Origin: Escherichia phage PSD2002
Sequence record: OK335775.1
Length of the DNA stretch: 64,000 bases
Direction: 5' to 3' (one strand)
Shown here: positions 647 to 28,736 of the stretch, piece by piece
How positions within the stretch are numbered: the first letter of the stretch is position 1
How the letters are laid out: every line of letters starts with the position of its first letter
Program-made: the position numbers and the translations under genes
Notes under the pieces: model-generated
The model's input: only the letters and a program-made list of their open reading frames with translations
Told to the model about the DNA's origin: nothing
Database searches by the model: none

Positions 647-1819
647 ATGTCTGATTTAAAATCCCGTTTGATTAAAGCTTCTACTTCTAAAATGACTGCC
701 GACCTGACCAAATCTAAATTGTTTAATGGTCGTGACGAAGTTCCTACTCGTATCCCTATGCTGAATATTGCATTAGGCGGTGCGTTGAATGCAGGCTTAC
801 AATCAGGTTTGACAATCTTTGCTGCTCCATCTAAACACTTTAAAACGTTGTTTGGACTTACCATGGTCGCGGCATATATGAAGAAATATCCAGACGCAAT
901 TTGTTTGTTCTATGACTCTGAGTTCGGTGCTTCAGAATCTTATTTCCGTTCGATGGGTGTTGATTTGGAACGTGTGGTTCATACCCCAATCCAGTCAGTC
1001 GAACAGCTTAAAGTTGATATGACCAACCAGTTAGAAGAAATTACTCGTGGCGAAAAGGTTATTATCTTTATCGACTCCATTGGTAACACCGCTTCTAAGA
1101 AAGAAACCGAAGATGCTTTGAACGAGAAAGTTGTAGGTGATATGACCCGTGCCAAGTCACTGAAATCTCTGTTCCGTATCGTAACGCCTTATCTGACCAT
1201 TAAGGATATTCCTTGCGTAGCAATTAACCATACGGCTATGGAAATTGGTGGAATGTATCCTAAAGAGATTATGGGTGGTGGTACTGGTATTCTGTACTCT
1301 GCTTCTACCGTGTTCTTTATCTCTAAACGTCAGGTTAAAGATGGTACCGAGCTCACGGGTTATGACTTCACACTGAAGGCTGAGAAATCTCGTACGGTTA
1401 AAGAGAAATCAACGTTCCCTATCACCGTTAACTTCGAAGGTGGTATCGACCCATTCAGTGGATTGCTTGAAATGGCTACTGATATTGGCTTTGTCGTGAA
1501 ACCTAAAGCTGGCTGGTATAATCGTGCATTCCTTGACGAAACCACGGGTGAAATGGTTCAAGAAGAAAAAGCATGGCGTGCTAAAGCTACTGATTGTGTT
1601 GAGTTCTGGGGACCGCTGTTTAAACATGCTCCGTTCCGTGAAGCAATCGAGAATAAGTATAAGCTTGGTGCAATTAATTCTATTAAAGAAGTTGACGATG
1701 CAGTGAACGACCTTATTAACTCTCGTGTCTCCAAGAACGTTGCTGTTAAATTAGGCGGAAATACCCAAAGCGCCGCTGATATCGAAAACGATTTAGAAGA
1801 GATGGATTTAGATGACTGA
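647..1819 (+). CDS. uvsX: UvsX RecA-like recombinase
   Basis: 390 aa; N-terminus MSDLKSRLIKASTSK and the RecA-type ATPase core closely match T4 UvsX as recalled; followed by genes 40 and 41 as in T4. Confidence 0.95.
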   Translation: MSDLKSRLIKASTSKMTADLTKSKLFNGRDEVPTRIPMLNIALGGALNAGLQSGLTIFAAPSKHFKTLFGLTMVAAYMKKYPDAICLFYDSEFGASESYFRSMGVDLERVVHTPIQSVEQLKVDMTNQLEEITRGEKVIIFIDSIGNTASKKETEDALNEKVVGDMTRAKSLKSLFRIVTPYLTIKDIPCVAINHTAMEIGGMYPKEIMGGGTGILYSASTVFFISKRQVKDGTELTGYDFTLKAEKSRTVKEKSTFPITVNFEGGIDPFSGLLEMATDIGFVVKPKAGWYNRAFLDETTGEMVQEEKAWRAKATDCVEFWGPLFKHAPFREAIENKYKLGAINSIKEVDDAVNDLINSRVSKNVAVKLGGNTQSAADIENDLEEMDLDD

Positions 1820-2141
1820 TTTATCTGATTTAGATAATTTTGTTAAAGATGCTGAAGAGGGCCCTAGTGACCCTCGTTATTATGAGAAATCATTAGATAT
1901 AATCCGTAAGTCAATGGGTTCTGTTAAGCAGGAAATTATGCTTACTTTACCCGATGGCACTGCTCACATCGTTTATGTGATGAATATTGTTATTGAGAAA
2001 GATGGAAAAGTGTCGGTTGATTTCGGAACACCTTCCGAAGACCGAAAAGAAGAGCTAGCGCTTCATGTAGAAAAATGTGTTACAATGCAAATACAAGAAG
2101 AACTGGATAAAATTAAATCTAAGAGGTGGTGGAAGTGGTAG
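1812..2141 (+). CDS. 40: Gene 40 head vertex assembly protein
   Basis: 109-aa ORF between uvsX and gene 41, overlapping both; assigned by position and size (T4 gp40 is of similar size). Confidence 0.65.
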   Translation: MTDLSDLDNFVKDAEEGPSDPRYYEKSLDIIRKSMGSVKQEIMLTLPDGTAHIVYVMNIVIEKDGKVSVDFGTPSEDRKEELALHVEKCVTMQIQEELDKIKSKRWWKW

Positions 2142-3565
2142 AAACTATTTTGGCTCAACTGCTAGGCAATAGTGATTATTTCACTAAGGTCTGGCCTTAT
2201 ATGAATGATTCTTATTTTGACCAGGGTCCTGCAAAGACCCTTTTCAAAGAAATTAAAAAACACGTCAATGAATATAATGCAGTGCCTTCTAAGAATGCAT
2301 TAAGCATTGCATTAGATAACAGTACGCTTTCAGAAGTTGAACATCAAGGCGCTAAAGAGCTTTTAAGTTCGCTGAACGCCGGGCCTGAAGACCAAGAATG
2401 GTTGGTTAAAGAGACGGAGAAATACGTTCAGAAAGCAGCGATGTATAATGCAACTTCAAAAATCATTGAAATCCAAACTAATGCCGACCTTCCGGTTGAG
2501 CAACAAAATAGAAAACTTCCAGGTATTGGTGCTATTCCAGATATCATGCGTGATGCATTATCGATTTGTTTCGATTCTGAATTAGGTCATGACTGGATGG
2601 ATGACTATGAAGAACGATTCAAAAGTTATTCCGATAAAGCACGTAAGGTTCCGTTCCGTCTTAATATTCTGAATAAGATTACTAAAGGTGGTGCCGAGTT
2701 TGGTACTGAAAACGTATTGTTGGCAGGAACAAACGTAGGTAAGTCTCTCGGTCTTTGTTCATTGGCTGCTGATTATCTTCAATCTGGTTACGATGTTCTT
2801 TATATCTCCATGGAGATGGCAGAGGAAGTATGTGCTAAGCGTATCGATGCCAACCTTCTGGATGTATCACTGGATGATATCGATGATGGCCACGTCTCGT
2901 GGCCTGAATATAAAGCTAAGATGGATAAATGGCGTTCAACTGCTACTTTAGGTCGTTTAAAGATTAAACAGTATCCTACTGGCGGTGCTAATGCCGATAC
3001 ATTCCGTGCATTATTAAACGAATACAAGCTCAAACAAAACTTTGTCCCACAGGTCGTTATCGTTGACTACTTGGCTATCTGTGCATCGTCTCGTACGAAA
3101 GTTTTCTCTGAAAACAGTTACGGATTGATTAAGATGGTTGCTGAAGAACTACGTGGACTTGCAGTAGAGAAGAAATTACTGTTGTGGACTGCAGCCCAGA
3201 CTACTCGTGGTGCGAACGTTGCAGCCGAAATCGATATGGCCGATATTGCTGAATCCTTTGGTATTGCACATACTGCAGACTTCATGTTGGGTGTGGTCGA
3301 GACAGAAGAGTTCGCTCAGATGGGTATGCAGATGGTTAAGCAGCTTAAATCTCGTTATGGCGATAAGAGCTACTACAACAAATTTAAGATTGGCGTTAAG
3401 AAAGGAAATCAACGTTGGTACGAAGTTGAAGATGATTCCAACCCAGGCCCAGTGAACACTGTTCGTGAGGCTACAGGTGAGATGAATCGCCAGGCCGAGG
3501 TCAATCGACAGACGCGTGTTAATAGAAGTGATTTGGACGATTTAGCAGCATCTATCAAATTTTAA
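2126..3565 (+). CDS. 41: Gp41 replicative DNA helicase (DnaB-like)
   Basis: 479 aa; Walker A GTNVGKS, DnaB-family architecture, N-terminal similarity to T4 gp41; position after 40. Confidence 0.95.
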   Translation: MVEVVETILAQLLGNSDYFTKVWPYMNDSYFDQGPAKTLFKEIKKHVNEYNAVPSKNALSIALDNSTLSEVEHQGAKELLSSLNAGPEDQEWLVKETEKYVQKAAMYNATSKIIEIQTNADLPVEQQNRKLPGIGAIPDIMRDALSICFDSELGHDWMDDYEERFKSYSDKARKVPFRLNILNKITKGGAEFGTENVLLAGTNVGKSLGLCSLAADYLQSGYDVLYISMEMAEEVCAKRIDANLLDVSLDDIDDGHVSWPEYKAKMDKWRSTATLGRLKIKQYPTGGANADTFRALLNEYKLKQNFVPQVVIVDYLAICASSRTKVFSENSYGLIKMVAEELRGLAVEKKLLLWTAAQTTRGANVAAEIDMADIAESFGIAHTADFMLGVVETEEFAQMGMQMVKQLKSRYGDKSYYNKFKIGVKKGNQRWYEVEDDSNPGPVNTVREATGEMNRQAEVNRQTRVNRSDLDDLAASIKF

Positions 3566-3591
3566 GGAGCTTCGGCTCCTTTTTTGTTTTT
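3566..3591 (+). terminator. Rho-independent terminator after gene 41
   Basis: GGAGC-TTCG-GCTCC hairpin followed by TTTTTTGTTTTT; immediately followed by an early promoter. Confidence 0.7.
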
Positions 3592-3595
3592 AAGG

Positions 3596-3624
3596 GTTTA
3601 CATCTCCTGTAGGCGTGATACTAT
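3596..3624 (+). promoter_or_regulatory. T-even early promoter (GTTTAC-N17-TACTAT)
   Basis: Match to the T4 early promoter consensus with sigma70-like spacing. Confidence 0.6.
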
Positions 3625-3648
3625 AGACCTATCAACTTGGAGAACAAA

Positions 3649-3966
3649 ATGAAAACCATCGACTGTAAAGCAGAATATAAAGTGTATTACCATGGAAGTT
3701 GTAGTGTCGCTAATATCGGTAATATGCTTTGTCCTCCTGAGGAAACAGGAGTTCTGTCTGAAACCGGTCGTAAGAAAAACCTAAATCGTGTGTTCTTTAC
3801 TGAAGATATCGGTTTGGCTAAGATTTATGCCGGACGTGCAGCTCGTTCAGTGGGAGGAGAACCCCGTCTTTATCGTGTAATTGCTCCGGTGGATGTGGTT
3901 TGTTTAAATGATACTAAAGGCGCTACGGTTTATCATGCTGAATGGGCCTTCTGCGAGGAAATCTAA
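3649..3966 (+). CDS. Hypothetical protein, possible minimal ART-like fold
   Basis: ATG at 3649 preceded by GGAGAA; ORF track start at 3637 is a TTG inside the 5' UTR. Contains YYHGS ... KIYAG ... EWAFCEE. Own early promoter upstream. Confidence 0.5.
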   Translation: MKTIDCKAEYKVYYHGSCSVANIGNMLCPPEETGVLSETGRKKNLNRVFFTEDIGLAKIYAGRAARSVGGEPRLYRVIAPVDVVCLNDTKGATVYHAEWAFCEEI

Positions 3967-4161
3967 ATGTCTGAATCAATTAAAGTAAAATTTGTCGGCC
4001 ATTTCGCCAACGGTGATACCGCTACCAAAGAAGCTTCAGTGCGTGAAAACGATATCGTGTGGGTGACTACCCAATTCGCTGAAGTAAATAATATTTTGGT
4101 TAAGGCGTATGTCGACGACGTAGAAGTTTATGAACATGATGCCCGTATTGAGGAAATCTAA
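3967..4161 (+). CDS. dmd: Candidate Dmd (discriminator of mRNA degradation; antitoxin against RnlA/LsoA)
   Basis: 64-aa ORF in the 41-61 interval where T4 encodes dmd; pattern VKVKFVGHF...WVTTQFAEVNNILVKAY resembles the remembered T4 Dmd sequence. Not verifiable without alignment. Confidence 0.4.
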   Translation: MSESIKVKFVGHFANGDTATKEASVRENDIVWVTTQFAEVNNILVKAYVDDVEVYEHDARIEEI

Positions 4162-4302
4162 ATGGAAGAATTTGAATGTGTAGTATGTGGTTGTTCGGTC
4201 TGTGAAGACCAGGCAGTATTTGATGCTTGGGACAACGCAACCTGTTTAGACTGTGACAGCGAATTCGAAGAAATTGCTCATAAACATGAAGGCGAGGAAT
4301 AA
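4162..4302 (+). CDS. Small Cys-rich (zinc-ribbon-like) protein
   Basis: 46-aa ORF with SD GAGGAA, fills the gap between neighbours; CVVCGC...C...CLDC cysteine pattern. Confidence 0.35.
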   Translation: MEEFECVVCGCSVCEDQAVFDAWDNATCLDCDSEFEEIAHKHEGEE

Positions 4303-5933: not shown

Positions 5934-6962
5934 ATGTCATATGTCGATAGAGAATTTGCTGTACGTGCCTTGAATTACCAACCTAAATTCAGACAAGTAA
6001 CTGGTAGTGATTTTAAATTAAACTGTCGTTGTCGTGTATGTGGCGACTCCCAAAAAGATGAGAACAAAGCTCGTTTTTGGGCCTATCCGGCTAATGATGG
6101 CTCCGTAATGCTGCACTGTTTTAACTGCGACTATTCAGCAGGAATTAAGAAGTATCTATACGAATATGAGCCGGATTTATATCGAGAATATATTCTTGAG
6201 AAACATAAAGAGCAATCGTTCGGGAGACAAGCTGCACCTAAGGTGGAGATATCTGAAAAAATTAAAGCTAAGATGCCTGTCATCGAAAAGCTTAATTTCT
6301 GTGAACGATTAGATAGAATGCCGAAGGACCATCCTATTATCAAATATGTAACACTACGTTGCATTCCTGAAAACAAATGGAATCGCTTATGGTTTACTAA
6401 AGAATGGCCGGCATTGGTGAACTCTGTCAATCCAGGGACCTATTCTAAAGAAATGCCTGAGCCTCGTTTGGTTATTCCAATTTTCAATAAGAATAAACAA
6501 ATTGAAAGTTTTCAGGGTCGAGCCTTACGTAAAGATGCTCCACAAAAGTATATTACAATAAAAGCTCATGACCAAGCTACAAAAATATATGGAATGGATA
6601 CAGTTGACGAACGTCAGTTGGTGTGGGTAATGGAAGGTCCTATTGATTCATTATTCGTACCTAATGCAATAGCAATTACTGGCGGGTCGTTGGACTTGGC
6701 TATGGTTCCGTGCAAAGAAACTAGGGTTTGGGCCCTTGATAGCGAAAGCCGCCACCCAGATACTATTTCAAGAATGAAAAAGCTTATCGAGGCTGGTGAA
6801 AAAGTAGTGTTTTGGGATAAGGTCCCTTGGCCTTCTAAAGATATTAACGATATGATTAGAAAAGACGGGGCGTCGCCGGAAGCAATACTAGAATATATGA
6901 AAAGTAATTACAGTCAAGGATTAATGGCTAAATTGAGATTACAACGGTATGCTAAAATATGA
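5934..6962 (+). CDS. 61: Gp61 DNA primase
   Basis: 342 aa; N-terminal zinc-binding CRCRVCGD...CFNC and Toprim-like core; matches T4 gp61 in size and sequence as recalled. Confidence 0.95.
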   Translation: MSYVDREFAVRALNYQPKFRQVTGSDFKLNCRCRVCGDSQKDENKARFWAYPANDGSVMLHCFNCDYSAGIKKYLYEYEPDLYREYILEKHKEQSFGRQAAPKVEISEKIKAKMPVIEKLNFCERLDRMPKDHPIIKYVTLRCIPENKWNRLWFTKEWPALVNSVNPGTYSKEMPEPRLVIPIFNKNKQIESFQGRALRKDAPQKYITIKAHDQATKIYGMDTVDERQLVWVMEGPIDSLFVPNAIAITGGSLDLAMVPCKETRVWALDSESRHPDTISRMKKLIEAGEKVVFWDKVPWPSKDINDMIRKDGASPEAILEYMKSNYSQGLMAKLRLQRYAKI

Positions 6963-7714
6963 ATTATAATAAAATTTATGACGATTTGGTTAATAGGGCC
7001 CTTGAAAGGGGTCTTATTAAAGAAAATTTAAAATACTATACAGAATCTCATCATATTATACCTGAATGTATAGGTGGGCCTGATATAGATTCAAACAAAG
7101 TATTATTTACGGCAAGAGAGCATTTTATAGCTCACATATTATTGTATAAGATTTATAAGTTGCCTAAATTAATATATGCTGTGCATATGATGTGCAATTC
7201 TAGCGAAAAGCACCAAAGAAATTCTAAGATGTATGACTGGCTTAGAAAGGAGCATAAAGCAGCCTTAAGTAAGAAAATGACCGATGCTTGGAAAGCCCCT
7301 GAATTTAGGACCAAAATGGTGGCGGCCTTATACCAAAGGCACAAAGATAAGCCCGTCACAGAGGAGACTAGGGAAAAACAGTCTAATTCTCTAAAGAGGT
7401 ATTATAAAGAAAATCCTATCTCTGAAGAAGCAAAAAAGAAAAATTCAGAAGCCCAAAAACAAAGGTTTAAAGATAGGCCTCAAACAGAAGAAACAAAAAG
7501 ATTAAGGAAGGACTCATGCAGAAAAACCCAAGGCACCCCTATATGGTTATGTAATTCGAATGGGGTAGGAATAGAAAAGTTTTCTTCTGCGGCAGAAGCT
7601 AAAGAAATCTTAGGATTGTCCGGGCACACCCAAAATATATACACCGCTTGTAAGCGAAACAAAGAAACCGGGAGATTGTATAAATCCTCCGGTTTAATTT
7701 GGAAATATCAATAA
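6959..7714 (+). CDS. HNH-family homing endonuclease (Mob/I-Hmu-like)
   Basis: 251 aa; HNH core HHIIPECIGGPD...N...EHFIAH followed by a Lys/Glu-rich repeat region and a C-terminal DNA-binding-like module; start overlaps the gene 61 stop (ATGA); markedly AT-rich codon usage compared with flanking genes. Confidence 0.8.
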   Translation: MNYNKIYDDLVNRALERGLIKENLKYYTESHHIIPECIGGPDIDSNKVLFTAREHFIAHILLYKIYKLPKLIYAVHMMCNSSEKHQRNSKMYDWLRKEHKAALSKKMTDAWKAPEFRTKMVAALYQRHKDKPVTEETREKQSNSLKRYYKENPISEEAKKKNSEAQKQRFKDRPQTEETKRLRKDSCRKTQGTPIWLCNSNGVGIEKFSSAAEAKEILGLSGHTQNIYTACKRNKETGRLYKSSGLIWKYQ

Positions 7715-7720
7715 TGGCAT

Positions 7721-7921
7721 TTAAACCTGCATACCTGTAAAGAATCCAATGATGCTCAACACGTGTTCCATAGTAACCGCAGGGAGAGTAATACCCTGAC
7801 TAGCCGCAACAGGTACAACTAAAAGATTCCATAGGAACACATCTAAAGCAAGGAAGCCCATCATGAGCTTTTTATCTTTCTTGCTGGTTAATTTCCAAAT
7901 TTGGTAAAATATACTACCCAT
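7721..7921 (-). CDS. Small hydrophobic (membrane) protein, antisense to the early-gene block
   Basis: 66 aa on - strand, strong SD (AGGAGG 5 nt before ATG), TATAAATA late-promoter motif on - strand at 7943-7950; fills a 206-bp gap not covered by any + strand ORF. Confidence 0.45.
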   Translation of the reverse strand: MGSIFYQIWKLTSKKDKKLMMGFLALDVFLWNLLVVPVAASQGITLPAVTMEHVLSIIGFFTGMQV

Positions 7922-17821: not shown

Positions 17822-18082
17822 ATGAAATATATTAATCGTTCTATTGCAGCTCTCGTATTAGCAGTTTCTTTGGTTGGATGTACTGATGCCGATAATGCTA
17901 CCCGTGTATTGGATGCAAATGGCTACGAACAAATCCAAATCACAGGATACAACCTATTTGGCTGCTCTGAAGATGATTTCCAACGTACAGGCTTTATTGC
18001 TGTGGGTCCGACAGGTAAAAGGGTTGAAGGAACTGTTTGTTCTGGATTATTCTTTAAAAAGTCGACCATTCGATTTGATTAA
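17822..18082 (+). CDS. Putative lipoprotein
   Basis: 86 aa; signal peptide with lipobox LVGC; terminator follows. Confidence 0.5.
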   Translation: MKYINRSIAALVLAVSLVGCTDADNATRVLDANGYEQIQITGYNLFGCSEDDFQRTGFIAVGPTGKRVEGTVCSGLFFKKSTIRFD

Positions 18083-18100
18083 GGGCTTCGGCCCTTTTAT
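18083..18100 (+). terminator. Rho-independent terminator upstream of gene 39
   Basis: GGGC-TTCG-GCCC plus TTTTAT. Confidence 0.55.
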
Positions 18101-18124
18101 GCTTTAAGTGAAATGGGATAATAT
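18099..18124 (+). promoter_or_regulatory. Middle promoter (MotA box) for gene 39
   Basis: ATGCTTTA followed about 12 bp later by TAATAT. Confidence 0.5.
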
Positions 18125-18148
18125 TCTCCTACTACATGAGGAAATAAC

Positions 18149-19966
18149 ATGATTAAGAATGAAATTAAAGTACTGTCCGACATTGAACATATCAAAAAAC
18201 GTAGTGGGATGTATATTGGCTCCAGTGCTAATGAAGCTCACGGTCGATTCCTGTTTGGCAATTTTACACAGGTAAACTATGTTCCTGGACTGGTTAAATT
18301 AATTGATGAAATCATTGATAACTCTGTCGATGAAGCTATTCGTACCAATTTTAAATTCGCAAATAAAATTGATGTTCAAATTAAGAATAACCAGGTTTCA
18401 GTTTCTGATAATGGTCGTGGTATTCCACAAGCAATGGTCACAGACCAAAATGGTGAACAGATTCCAGGTCCTGTAGCTGCATGGACTATTCCAAAGGCAG
18501 GTGGTAACTTTGGAGATGACGCTGAGCGTAAGACAGGCGGCATGAATGGTGTCGGTAGTAGTTTAACTAATATCTTCTCTGTTTTGTTCACAGGCATCAC
18601 CTCTGATGGTGAGAATGAGATTACTGTTAACTGTTCAAACGGAATGGAAAACAAAGGTTGGTCTACTAAGAAATCTAAAGGTAAGGGTACTTCGGTTATA
18701 TTCACCCCAGACTTTAATCATTTCGAAGAAAATAGCCTGTCACAAATTTATCTGGATATTACATTAGACCGATTGCAAACTCTGGCCGTAGTTTATCCTG
18801 ATATTCAATTTACTTTTAATGGTAAAAAAGTAGATGGCAACTTTAAAAAGTATGCTAAGCAATTTGGTGAAGACTTTGTAATCCAAGAAACCGATAATGT
18901 TTCGATGGCGTTCACTCCTTCTCCGGATGGATTCCGTCAACTGACTTATGTAAACAATATCCACACCAAGAATGGTGGCCACCACGTTGAATGTGTATTC
19001 GATGATATTTGTGAACACCTTCTGCCAGGCATTAAAAAGAAATACCGTGGAATTGAAGTAACTAAAGCTCGTGTTAAAGAATGCCTTACGATGGTGATGT
19101 TCATTCGTGATATGAGCAACATGCGTTTTGATTCACAGACTAAAGAACGTTTGACCTCTCCTTTTGGTGAGATTCGCAATCATATCCAAATTGATGCTAA
19201 GAAAATTGCTCAAGCCATTCTTAAAGTTGATGGGTTGATTATGCCTATCGTTGAAGCTGCTTTAGCACGTAAATTAGCAGCTGAAAAGGCCGCTGAAACT
19301 AAAGCCGCTAAGAAAGCTTCTAAAGCCAAGGTCCATAAGCATATTAAAGCTAACTTATACGGCAAAGATGCTGATACAACCCTGTTCCTAACCGAAGGTG
19401 ATTCCGCTATGGGTCCTTTCATTGAAGTTCGTAATAAAGACCTTCAAGGTGGTTATCCATTACGTGGTAAGGTTATGAATACCTGGGGAATGACAGCAAC
19501 AGATATCATGAAGAACAAGGAGCTATTTGATATCTGTGCAATCACTGGATTGGTTATTGGTGAACCTGCAGAGAAAACCAACTATCGTAATATCGCCATC
19601 ATGACCGATGCCGATGTGGATGGTACTGGTTCGATTTATCCATCATTGCTAGCCTTCTTTAGTCAATGGCCTGAATTGTTCGAACAAGGCCGAGTACGTT
19701 TCTGTAAAACACCTGTAATTATTGCCCAGGTTGGTAAAGAACAGGAATGGTTCTATGATGTGCCTAGTTATACCAAAGCTAAGGACTCTCTACCAAAACA
19801 CTCCATTCGTTATATCAAAGGACTGGGTTCTCTTGAGAAGGCTGAATACCGTCGAATGATTCAAGACCCTAAATTTGATGTGGTTCAATTACCTGAAGAT
19901 TGGAAAGAACAGTTCGAAATGCTCCTTGGTAATGACCCACAACTCCGTAAGGCCTGGATGTCGTAA
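18149..19966 (+). CDS. 39: DNA topoisomerase II large (GyrB-like) subunit, fused gp39+gp60 form
   Basis: 605 aa single ORF; ATPase and Toprim regions; T4 splits this protein into 39 and 60 whereas T2-type phages encode one fused protein. Confidence 0.9.
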   Translation: MIKNEIKVLSDIEHIKKRSGMYIGSSANEAHGRFLFGNFTQVNYVPGLVKLIDEIIDNSVDEAIRTNFKFANKIDVQIKNNQVSVSDNGRGIPQAMVTDQNGEQIPGPVAAWTIPKAGGNFGDDAERKTGGMNGVGSSLTNIFSVLFTGITSDGENEITVNCSNGMENKGWSTKKSKGKGTSVIFTPDFNHFEENSLSQIYLDITLDRLQTLAVVYPDIQFTFNGKKVDGNFKKYAKQFGEDFVIQETDNVSMAFTPSPDGFRQLTYVNNIHTKNGGHHVECVFDDICEHLLPGIKKKYRGIEVTKARVKECLTMVMFIRDMSNMRFDSQTKERLTSPFGEIRNHIQIDAKKIAQAILKVDGLIMPIVEAALARKLAAEKAAETKAAKKASKAKVHKHIKANLYGKDADTTLFLTEGDSAMGPFIEVRNKDLQGGYPLRGKVMNTWGMTATDIMKNKELFDICAITGLVIGEPAEKTNYRNIAIMTDADVDGTGSIYPSLLAFFSQWPELFEQGRVRFCKTPVIIAQVGKEQEWFYDVPSYTKAKDSLPKHSIRYIKGLGSLEKAEYRRMIQDPKFDVVQLPEDWKEQFEMLLGNDPQLRKAWMS

Positions 19967-20010: not shown

Positions 20011-20172
20011 ATGAGAAAGTACTGGGTTACGCTCGTCACCGGTGAATACGGTTATATCTGGACTGATACTAGACCTCAGTTTGCAGAATACGTGACTATT
20101 ACAGTCGAGACATGGGACGGCGAAGTTTACCAAACCCGCGGACAAGTCTATAAGGTCGATTCAAGTAACTAA
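20011..20172 (+). CDS. Hypothetical small protein
   Basis: 53-aa ORF below cutoff, followed by terminator hairpin. Confidence 0.3.
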   Translation: MRKYWVTLVTGEYGYIWTDTRPQFAEYVTITVETWDGEVYQTRGQVYKVDSSN

Positions 20173-20197: not shown

Positions 20198-20221
20198 GTT
20201 TACAAAGACCCGTGGTTATGA
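20198..20221 (+). promoter_or_regulatory. Early promoter
   Basis: GTTTAC immediately after a terminator; -10-like TATGAT. Confidence 0.45.
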
Positions 20222-20244
20222 TAGGATTATCTAGAGGTGAGAAT

Positions 20245-20568
20245 ATGATTATGCAAGATAACAGTATAGTGAACACTGACAACCTGGCTCTATCCTTTAT
20301 GGAAACGGCCATTCGTAACTGTAAAGATGAAGGAGTAGTGACTACAAGCGGTAAGGGACTTGAATACCTTAAGGTTGTAAAATCTATTGCCTTAAAGATT
20401 AAAGATAACCAGGCGCTCTCTCCTGTGGTCCAGGAAAAGGTTTTAGAGATAATGTATCGCCACAGAGAGCACAAAAGTACAATGGGTTCTATGAGAAGAA
20501 TTCTGGCTGAACTAGGTTCTACCAGAGAATATGTTCAACATGAGGTAGTTAAAAATGACAAACTTTAA
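20245..20568 (+). CDS. Hypothetical protein
   Basis: ATG 20245 after AGAGGTGA. Confidence 0.45.
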   Translation: MIMQDNSIVNTDNLALSFMETAIRNCKDEGVVTTSGKGLEYLKVVKSIALKIKDNQALSPVVQEKVLEIMYRHREHKSTMGSMRRILAELGSTREYVQHEVVKNDKL

Positions 20569-27356: not shown

Positions 27357-28736
27357 ATGGCTGATGTAATTGATACCCTTTTTAAACAGGCTTTAGATGT
27401 TTACGATGATTCTTTCACTCGTCGTGACTTAAAAAGTATTATCGACAACGAAGCATTGGCTTATGCAATGTATACTGTCGAAAACCGAGCCATTCCAAAT
27501 ATGATTGATGGCTTTAAACCTGTACAACGTTTTGTAGTGGCTCGTTGTCTTGATATGGCTCGTGGTAATAAAGAAAAATTCCACAAACTGGCTTCTATCG
27601 CTGGTGGTGTAGCCGACCTCGGATATCACCACGGTGAAGGTTCTGCTCAGGAAGCAGGGGCTTTGATGGCTAACACATGGAACAACAACTATCCATTGTT
27701 AGACGGCCAAGGTAACTTCGGTTCTCGATTGGTTCAAAAGGCTGCAGCCTCTCGTTATATTTTTGCTCGTATCGGAAGTAACTTTGCAAAAGTTTATAAG
27801 GACACAGAATATGCTCCGGTTCATGCGGATGTCGAACATAAGCCACCGGCTTTTTATCTGCCTATTATTCCTACTGTTCTTCTTAATGGCGTTTCCGGTA
27901 TTGCAACTGGTTATGCAACTAATATTCTTCCTCATAGTTTTGATTCTGTTAAGAAAGCTGTATTGCAAGTTCTTCAGGAAAAACGTGTAACCAAGCCTAA
28001 AGTGGCTTATCCTGAATTCCGTGGTGAAGTTGTTGAGATTGAGCCTGGTAGTTATGAGATTCGCGGAACGTATAAGTTCACATCCCGAACCCAAATGCAT
28101 ATCACGGAAATTCCATACAAATACGACCGTGAAACATATGTGGCTAAGGTATTAGACCCTCTGGAAGACAAAGGGTATATCACATATGATGACGATTGTG
28201 ATGAGAACGGTTTCGGCTTCAAGGTTAAGATTCGTAAAGAATATGAATTGCCCACTGATGAAGATAAGAAACACGAAAAACTCATGAAGGACTTCGGGTT
28301 AATTGAACGTCGTTCACAAAACCTGACTGTCATTAATGAGAAAGGTAAACTTAAGGTTTACGAAGATGCAGTTGAACTGATTCGTGATTTCGTTGAGGTC
28401 CGTAAGACCTTTGTACAGAAACGTATTGATGGTAAAATCATCGAAACCGAAGAAGCTTTCAAACTGGCACTGGCTAAAGCCACATTTATCAAAGATGTTA
28501 TTGATGGAATTGTAGTTATCCAAGGTAAGACTCGTAAGGTTTTAACCGAAGAATTGGCTGGTAATAAAGTCTACGGCGGATATGCCGATAAACTGGTTGC
28601 AATGAACATTTTCCATATCACTTCTGACGAAGCTAAGAAACTGGCTTTGGAAGCCAAGGCTAAGAAGGAAGAGCATCAATACTGGAAAACCACTGATGTT
28701 GTAACTGAGTATGTTAAAGATTTGGAGGCTCTATGA
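27357..28736 (+). CDS. 52: DNA topoisomerase II medium (GyrA-like) subunit
   Basis: 459 aa; GyrA N-terminal breakage-reunion motifs; matches T4 gp52. Confidence 0.95.
   Translation: MADVIDTLFKQALDVYDDSFTRRDLKSIIDNEALAYAMYTVENRAIPNMIDGFKPVQRFVVARCLDMARGNKEKFHKLASIAGGVADLGYHHGEGSAQEAGALMANTWNNNYPLLDGQGNFGSRLVQKAAASRYIFARIGSNFAKVYKDTEYAPVHADVEHKPPAFYLPIIPTVLLNGVSGIATGYATNILPHSFDSVKKAVLQVLQEKRVTKPKVAYPEFRGEVVEIEPGSYEIRGTYKFTSRTQMHITEIPYKYDRETYVAKVLDPLEDKGYITYDDDCDENGFGFKVKIRKEYELPTDEDKKHEKLMKDFGLIERRSQNLTVINEKGKLKVYEDAVELIRDFVEVRKTFVQKRIDGKIIETEEAFKLALAKATFIKDVIDGIVVIQGKTRKVLTEELAGNKVYGGYADKLVAMNIFHITSDEAKKLALEAKAKKEEHQYWKTTDVVTEYVKDLEAL

Follow-up and report, generated by a model that had tools for sequence, protein, structure and literature searches.

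In bacteriophage T4, what is a single gene in its relatives T2 and T6 is divided between genes 39 and 60, which together encode the large subunit of the phage type II DNA topoisomerase, whereas in Escherichia phage PSD2002 one open reading frame (ORF) covers both. The question raised by this locus is whether the gene has always been in one piece, or whether it was once split as in T4 and later restored. The topoisomerase II of T2 and T6 consists of two subunits (gp39 and gp52), and among type IIA enzymes that of T4 alone has three (PMC11461880). It has been described that the MobA element splits Topo2L, with repeated insertion at one site in six phage clades, and that uninterrupted 'parental' Topo2L genes are 96-99% identical to split ones (Manning & Atkins, bioRxiv 10.1101/2022.08.31.505936). 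For an Aeromonas phage clade, a 'hit-and-run' loss of the element has been proposed, in which the genes keep insert-derived C- and N-terminal extensions (CTE/NTE) (Manning & Atkins, bioRxiv 10.1101/2022.08.31.505936).

The locus was analysed in its window, that is, the whole 64-kb stretch of DNA under study. The ORF at 18149..19966 is almost certainly gene 39 of a T4-like coliphage of the Dhakavirus (JS98-like) type, intact and never interrupted, and its product is the type IIA topoisomerase subunit that contains the ATPase, transducer and Toprim domains.

The gene 39 product and its surroundings

The features on which the following sections draw are given here by window position, with the means by which each was recognised.

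18081..18096, + strand: GC-rich hairpin with a UUCG loop and a T run after it, in the interval from gene 39.1 to gene 39 (pattern scan, a consensus match only)
18138..18141, + strand: Shine-Dalgarno sequence GAGG, 7 nt 5' of the ATG (read directly from the sequence, …CATGAGGAAATAAC followed by ATG)
18149..19966, + strand: gene 39, DNA topoisomerase II large (GyrB/ParE-like) subunit, 605 aa (Pfam, PHROGs, megablast, T6 structure match)
18308..18556, + strand: GHKL ATP-binding motifs, namely the N-box EIIDNSVD (aa 54-61), G1 DNGRGIP (aa 87-93) and G2 GMNGVG (aa 131-136) (motif search)
19136..19144, + strand: QTK loop of the transducer domain, aa 330-332 (motif search)
19394..19408, + strand: Toprim EGDSA with the catalytic Glu, aa 416-420, located on gp39 in T4 (motif search, T4 gp39 alignment)
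aa 437-441 of the ORF: PLRGK (motif search)
19568..19582, + strand: equivalent of the T4 gp39/gp60 break, aa 474-478 (A-E-K-T-N), the site of the MobA element in T4 (blastp end-points, T2 junction alignment)
19607..19624, + strand: Toprim metal-binding DxDxDG, here DADVDG, aa 487-492 (motif search, T4 and T2 alignments)
27357..28736, + strand: gene 52 homologue, the GyrA/ParC-like DNA-cleavage partner of gp39 (Pfam DNA_topoisoIV at aa 44-448, E 6.3e-75)

In the ORF list of the window, gene 39 is one ATG-started ORF. The family phrog_543 ('DNA topoisomerase II large subunit') matched aa 1-605 of its product with an E of 2.9e-281, and with a full-length match of this kind to a 605-aa ORF a chance match is not an issue. 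Two Pfam domains scored above the cut-off, HATPase_c on aa 47-189 (E 2.4e-10) and DNA_gyraseB (PF00204) on aa 250-385 (E 2.7e-13), and two remained below it, Toprim on aa 411-519 (18.4 against 23.1 bits) and TOPRIM_C on aa 521-583 (21.6 against 29 bits). These sub-threshold scores are what would be expected for this divergent phage clade, and they are outweighed by the motifs and by the full-length alignments to solved structures. The T6 gp39 structure 8ylu_C matched aa 1-605 with 1088 bits, and 8yo3_C, a PDB entry in which T4 gp39 and gp60 were artificially fused, matched the ORF in two stretches. Furthermore, the Toprim region of the ORF aligned without gaps to T4 gp39/gp60, to T2 gp39 and to the T6 structure. 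The features that mark a large subunit (GHKL ATPase, QTK transducer, Toprim motifs, full-length collinearity and a gp52 partner) were thus all present.

ATP-dependent DNA relaxation is an activity demonstrated for the T4 and T6 homologues (PMC11461880). By close homology with the T6 and T2 enzyme, two copies of the 605-aa protein and two of the gene 52 product would assemble into an A2B2 heterotetramer, in which the GHKL domains would bind and hydrolyse ATP and thereby close the N-gate. The Toprim domain, through the Glu of EGDSA and the acidic cluster DADVD, would hold the Mg2+ that is used together with the gp52 tyrosine for cleavage of the G-segment, and passage of the T-segment would then relax DNA during phage replication, as judged from the homologues.

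The gene lies in a T4-like order (dexA, motB.2, motB.1, motB, cef, goF, 39.2, 39.1, 39, rIIA.1, rIIA), with uvsX, gp41, gp61 and dda upstream of gene 39 and motA downstream. GC content was even across the ORF (0.36-0.43), with no step at the position of the T4 interruption. The hairpin that precedes the gene (AAGGGC-TTCG-GCCCTT, as stem, loop and stem) looks like a candidate terminator or RNA-stabilising element; the pattern scan for promoters and terminators gave no enrichment relative to shuffled sequence, terminator-like sites included. Scans of the whole window for tRNAs and Rfam families gave no matches.

In T4 and T2, just about 55 bp lie between gene 39 and rIIA.1, whereas the window has two extra small ORFs in this interval:

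20011..20172, + strand: ORF of 53 aa, phrog_4369
20212..20568, + strand: ORF of 118 aa, Pfam DUF7367, phrog_5382

Both are kept in about 50 Dhakavirus records and have partial homologues in other T4-like genera. The DUF7367 ORF was considered as a relocated T4 gp60.1 and rejected, as no similarity was found; both small ORFs are unrelated to that protein.

The positions of the T4 interruptions

For comparison with the split gene, T4 proteins were taken from NC_000866, gene 60 being joined across its 50-nt gap according to the annotation, and aligned by blastp; T2 gp39 (605 aa) was taken from AP018813, positions 2447..4264. T4 gp39 aa 1-473 corresponded to ORF aa 1-474 at 77% identity, with one gap near aa 301, and T4 gp60 aa 32-159 to ORF aa 478-605, likewise at 77% identity (E 1e-73) and ungapped. 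Only 3 residues of the ORF join the two matching parts. Neither the 43 residues at the C-terminal end of T4 gp39 nor the 31 at the start of gp60, all of which the T4 insert encodes, had a counterpart in the ORF. T2 gp39, in turn, was collinear from end to end (ORF aa 1-605 against T2 aa 1-604) at 78.2% identity, with a single 1-aa gap far from the junction. The sequences at the junction read as follows.

Window ORF: GEPAEKTNYRNIAIMTDADVDGTGS
T2 gp39: GEKAENLNYHNIAIMTDADHDGLGS
T4 gp39: GEKA, followed by the tail that the insert encodes
T4 gp60: head encoded by the insert, followed by NYANVAIMTDADHDG, the gap of 50 nt and LGS

These alignments bear out the central claims of an earlier note on this DNA, which had read the ORF as covering T4 genes 39 and 60 in one continuous frame, with no bypass element or endonuclease insert, in the unsplit state of T2. 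The note had taken the gp60-equivalent part to be 90 aa long; it is in fact the C-terminal 128 aa, and their identity to gp60 argues against the C-terminus being an unrelated sequence.

The site of insertion in T4 lies within the Toprim domain, after EGDSA and before DxDxD, in agreement with the published description. In T4, the codons that correspond to ORF aa 474 and 478 are separated by a 1012-nt insert. It contains a decayed HNH endonuclease (mobA/60.1) together with the sequences for the 43-aa gp39 tail and the 31-aa gp60 head, all of them absent from the window gene. The second T4 interruption, the 50-nt coding gap after the glycine of DADHDG, lies downstream of the 1012-nt insert and is likewise absent from the window gene. 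Here Gly492 (GGT, nt 19622-19624) is the equivalent of the T4 gene 60 take-off codon Gly46 (GGA). In T4 the take-off context is GAT GGA, 50 nt, and then TTA GGT, whereas in the window the sequence continues from DADVDG straight in frame as GAT GGT ACT GGT TCG ATT. The frame is therefore continuous through both of the T4 interruption points, and the features of the T4-type split with bypass (an endonuclease between the halves, terminal extensions and a gap of about 50 nt) are all lacking from the window gene, which otherwise shares with T4 gp39 and gp60 the enzyme, its motifs and 77% identity to the topoisomerase-derived parts of both.

With T2/T6 gp39 the likeness is closer in architecture, extending to the length of 605 aa, the domain order, the catalytic motifs, the uninterrupted Toprim domain, the gp52 partner and the neighbourhood (39.2, 39.1, 39 … rIIA.1, rIIA). 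The differences are the amino acid identity of about 78%, the genus (Tequatrovirus against Dhakavirus) and the 1-aa indel near aa 301.

Remnants of an insertion, which the earlier note had proposed to look for at the junction, were then sought directly, and none was found. The T4 gp39 tail, the gp60 head and gp60.1 (by tblastn) and the 1012-nt insert DNA (by blastn) gave only chance-level matches in the 64-kb window, none of which fell inside the ORF, and tblastn with the T4 mobA fragment and with the intact 272-aa MobA of phage e11/2 gave no match in 18149..19966. The one real match of the T4 mobA fragment in the window, at 7031..7102, lies outside gene 39 and reflects the HNH domain shared with an unrelated endonuclease.

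That an ancestor of this phage carried the MobA element and later lost it, so that a single ORF was restored by secondary re-fusion ('hit and run'), is very improbable. Genes re-fused in this manner do exist (Manning & Atkins, bioRxiv 10.1101/2022.08.31.505936), but the published examples keep extension sequences, and CTE/NTE residues retained at the MobA site, the feature by which a re-fused Topo2L is recognised, are absent from the window gene: the ORF is as long as T2 gp39, it shows no length difference from it between aa 466 and 500, and it has no CTE/NTE similarity, including none to the tails encoded by the T4 insert. A perfectly precise loss, for instance through recombination with a relative that has the uninterrupted gene, would go unseen in these comparisons. 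No local dip in identity or composition was seen at the junction, and in 60-nt windows DNA identity to T2 was 67-72% there against about 73% gene-wide, with no divergence scar.

The preferred reading is accordingly that of a gene which was never split: in T4, the MobA homing-endonuclease element entered the Toprim domain, dividing the coding sequence between genes 39 and 60 and introducing the 50-nt bypass gap, and the phage of the window never acquired the element. The gene is of the parental type, from a genus without known MobA invasion.

Relatives and the frequency of the uninterrupted gene

A megablast search of GenBank phages returned vB_EcoM-E33 at 98.8% DNA identity and LHE83, IME540, PSD9, QL01, WG01, MX01 and IME08 at 93-98.7%, in each case with the gene annotated as topoisomerase II large subunit. 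The taxonomy of the relatives checked was Dhakavirus, and gene 39 of this genus (PSD9, vB_EcoM-E33, LHE83, QL01, WG01, IME08, JS98, Bp7) is effectively the same gene, at 90-98.8% nucleotide identity and uninterrupted throughout. When a 401-nt probe that includes both points of interruption in T4 (19400..19800) was used, all 50 matching records (50/50) gave one continuous piece, and none of these relatives had CTE/NTE-like residues, which further argues against re-fusion. A decaying or non-functional copy of gene 39, with topoisomerase function supplied elsewhere, is excluded on sequence grounds by a reading frame open from end to end with intact ATPase and Toprim motifs, by a protein 100% identical in the independently isolated Shigella phage PSD9, by the presence of the gene at the same locus in about 50 relatives and by that of the partner gp52 gene in the same genome. 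Incidentally, no second GyrB-like gene was noticed in the window.

The state of the gene was also followed beyond the genus. A tblastn search with the ORF matched 2200 phage records, and in 1954 of these one place accounted for 80% or more of the query. Sixty rows of this search were sampled at even spacing. Among them, T4, one Aeromonas phage and two Acinetobacter phages had matches in several pieces with an annotated homing endonuclease between them, and a small number of records from very distant phages (of Campylobacter, Yersinia and Klebsiella) matched in two pieces with no annotated endonuclease. The split locus measures 2854-2855 bp not only in T4 but also in the Acinetobacter phages fHyAci03 and KARL-1 and the Aeromonas phage 50AhydR13PP; these near-equal spans fit the published picture, in which a single conserved mobile element has inserted at one site in clades that are far apart. 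T4 cassette DNA was present at a coverage of at least 80% in 41 records, from T4 and close relatives, and in part in Salmonella S16, Proteus and Acinetobacter phages, with none from Dhakavirus among the matches listed (40 of 136). Overall, about 1950 phage records with an uninterrupted gene compare with roughly 40-60 that have a T4-type cassette.

Several expectations of the earlier note have to be revised in this light. Its term 'fused' is misleading, as the uninterrupted gene is the ancestral state, never split, in about 1950 of 2200 phage records. The uninterrupted state had also been expected to help place the phage, which it does not do, because most phages, in Straboviridae and outside that family, share it; it is nucleotide identity, at 98.8%, that points to Dhakavirus as the genus to which the phage belongs. 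Finally, the gene had been proposed as a useful comparator for the origin of the T4 split. It is a poor one, since T2 gp39 is 98% identical to T4 gp39 aa 1-473, and genes of the T2/T6 type, at about 98% identity to T4 over this region, are far better suited. Closer uninterrupted relatives of T4 therefore exist for studying how the split and the bypass arose, and the two-subunit T6 form has solved structures (the PDB entries for the T2/T6 two-subunit form are 8YLU, 8YO1, 8YO5, 8YO7, 8YOD, 8YON and 9IMJ). It is already known that this is the ordinary state of a well-known gene, with the T4 split as the exception, and the contrast between parental and MobA-split genes has been published. The significance of the locus beyond its correct annotation is slight, as it adds one more example of a common ancestral state.

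With regard to annotation, JS98, JS10, Bp7 and EcWhh-1 label the full-length gene 'topoisomerase II large subunit N-terminal region', a name carried over from the split T4 gene. Other labels in use are 'parE' (UGJNEcP3, UGJNEcP4), 'DNA primase-helicase subunit' (ESCO10) and 'hypothetical protein' (T2 AP018813, AnYang MK234886). The proper label is full-length DNA topoisomerase II large subunit, not 'N-terminal region'.

One megablast match, to phage 04086 (OR842557), was in two pieces and was considered as an interrupted gene 39. This was rejected, as the two pieces arise from a tandem duplication and not from a break at the junction. The duplicated segment, of about 186 bp, corresponds to window positions 18005..18190 and comprises the 3' end of 39.1, the hairpin between the two genes and the 42 nt with which gene 39 begins; its copies lie at about 2857..3042 and 3045..3230 of the stretch examined, and gene 39 is not interrupted there. 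The duplication may be an assembly artefact or real.

Possible MobA susceptibility and other HNH endonucleases

Over the 45 nt equivalent to the homR/nick region, the window matched T2 at 34 positions (34/45, 76%), and T4 homR matched T2 at 33 (33/45, 73%). According to the published account, homR polymorphisms alone do not stop nicking by MobA (Bonocora et al. 2011, via Manning & Atkins, bioRxiv 10.1101/2022.08.31.505936). The copy of the nick region that is encoded by the T4 insert is reportedly nickable unless the bypass insert is present. Given the similarity over the 45 nt and the failure of homR changes to block nicking, the window gene may be cleavable by MobA. We tentatively suggest, as a possibility that is rather less probable than its opposite, that gene 39 of Dhakavirus is a MobA target which is naive yet open to cleavage, and that the absence of the element from the 50 sampled genomes would stem from lack of opportunity or from exclusion in mixed infection and not from immunity. 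If this were true, Dhakavirus phages would provide a clean recipient in which to watch the cassette enter a new genus.

The window does carry a mobile insert of about 780 bp elsewhere, in the region of the primase gene:

5934..6962: primase gene 61
6959..7714, + strand: free-standing HNH homing-endonuclease ORF, 251 aa (phrog_655, E 3.6e-52), directly after gene 61 and overlapping its stop
6959..7737: the mobile insert that contains this ORF

Among 51 near-level relatives only Bp7 has this insert (98.4% identity), the rest matching in two pieces. In the comparison with QL01, the match breaks at window positions 6958|7738, and identity in the downstream flank is just 75.6%. The HNH ORF was considered as a relocated MobA and rejected, as its likeness to MobA is confined to the N-terminal nuclease domain (44% over 104 aa) and the remainder is unrelated.

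A last observation concerns the MobA gene of T4 itself, for which T4 positions 2971..3351 were compared with e11/2 positions 1610..2428 (positions in the stretches examined). T4 gp60.1 (126 aa) is nearly identical, but for a few substitutions, to the C-terminal part of MobA from phage e11/2, where the protein is intact (272 aa) and its gene is labelled MobE, and the 37-aa T4 ORF annotated as 'mobA' is an N-terminal fragment of an e11/2-type MobA. As gp60.1 and 'mobA' are pieces of one MobA, T4 carries a single decayed MobA gene that has been annotated as two ORFs.
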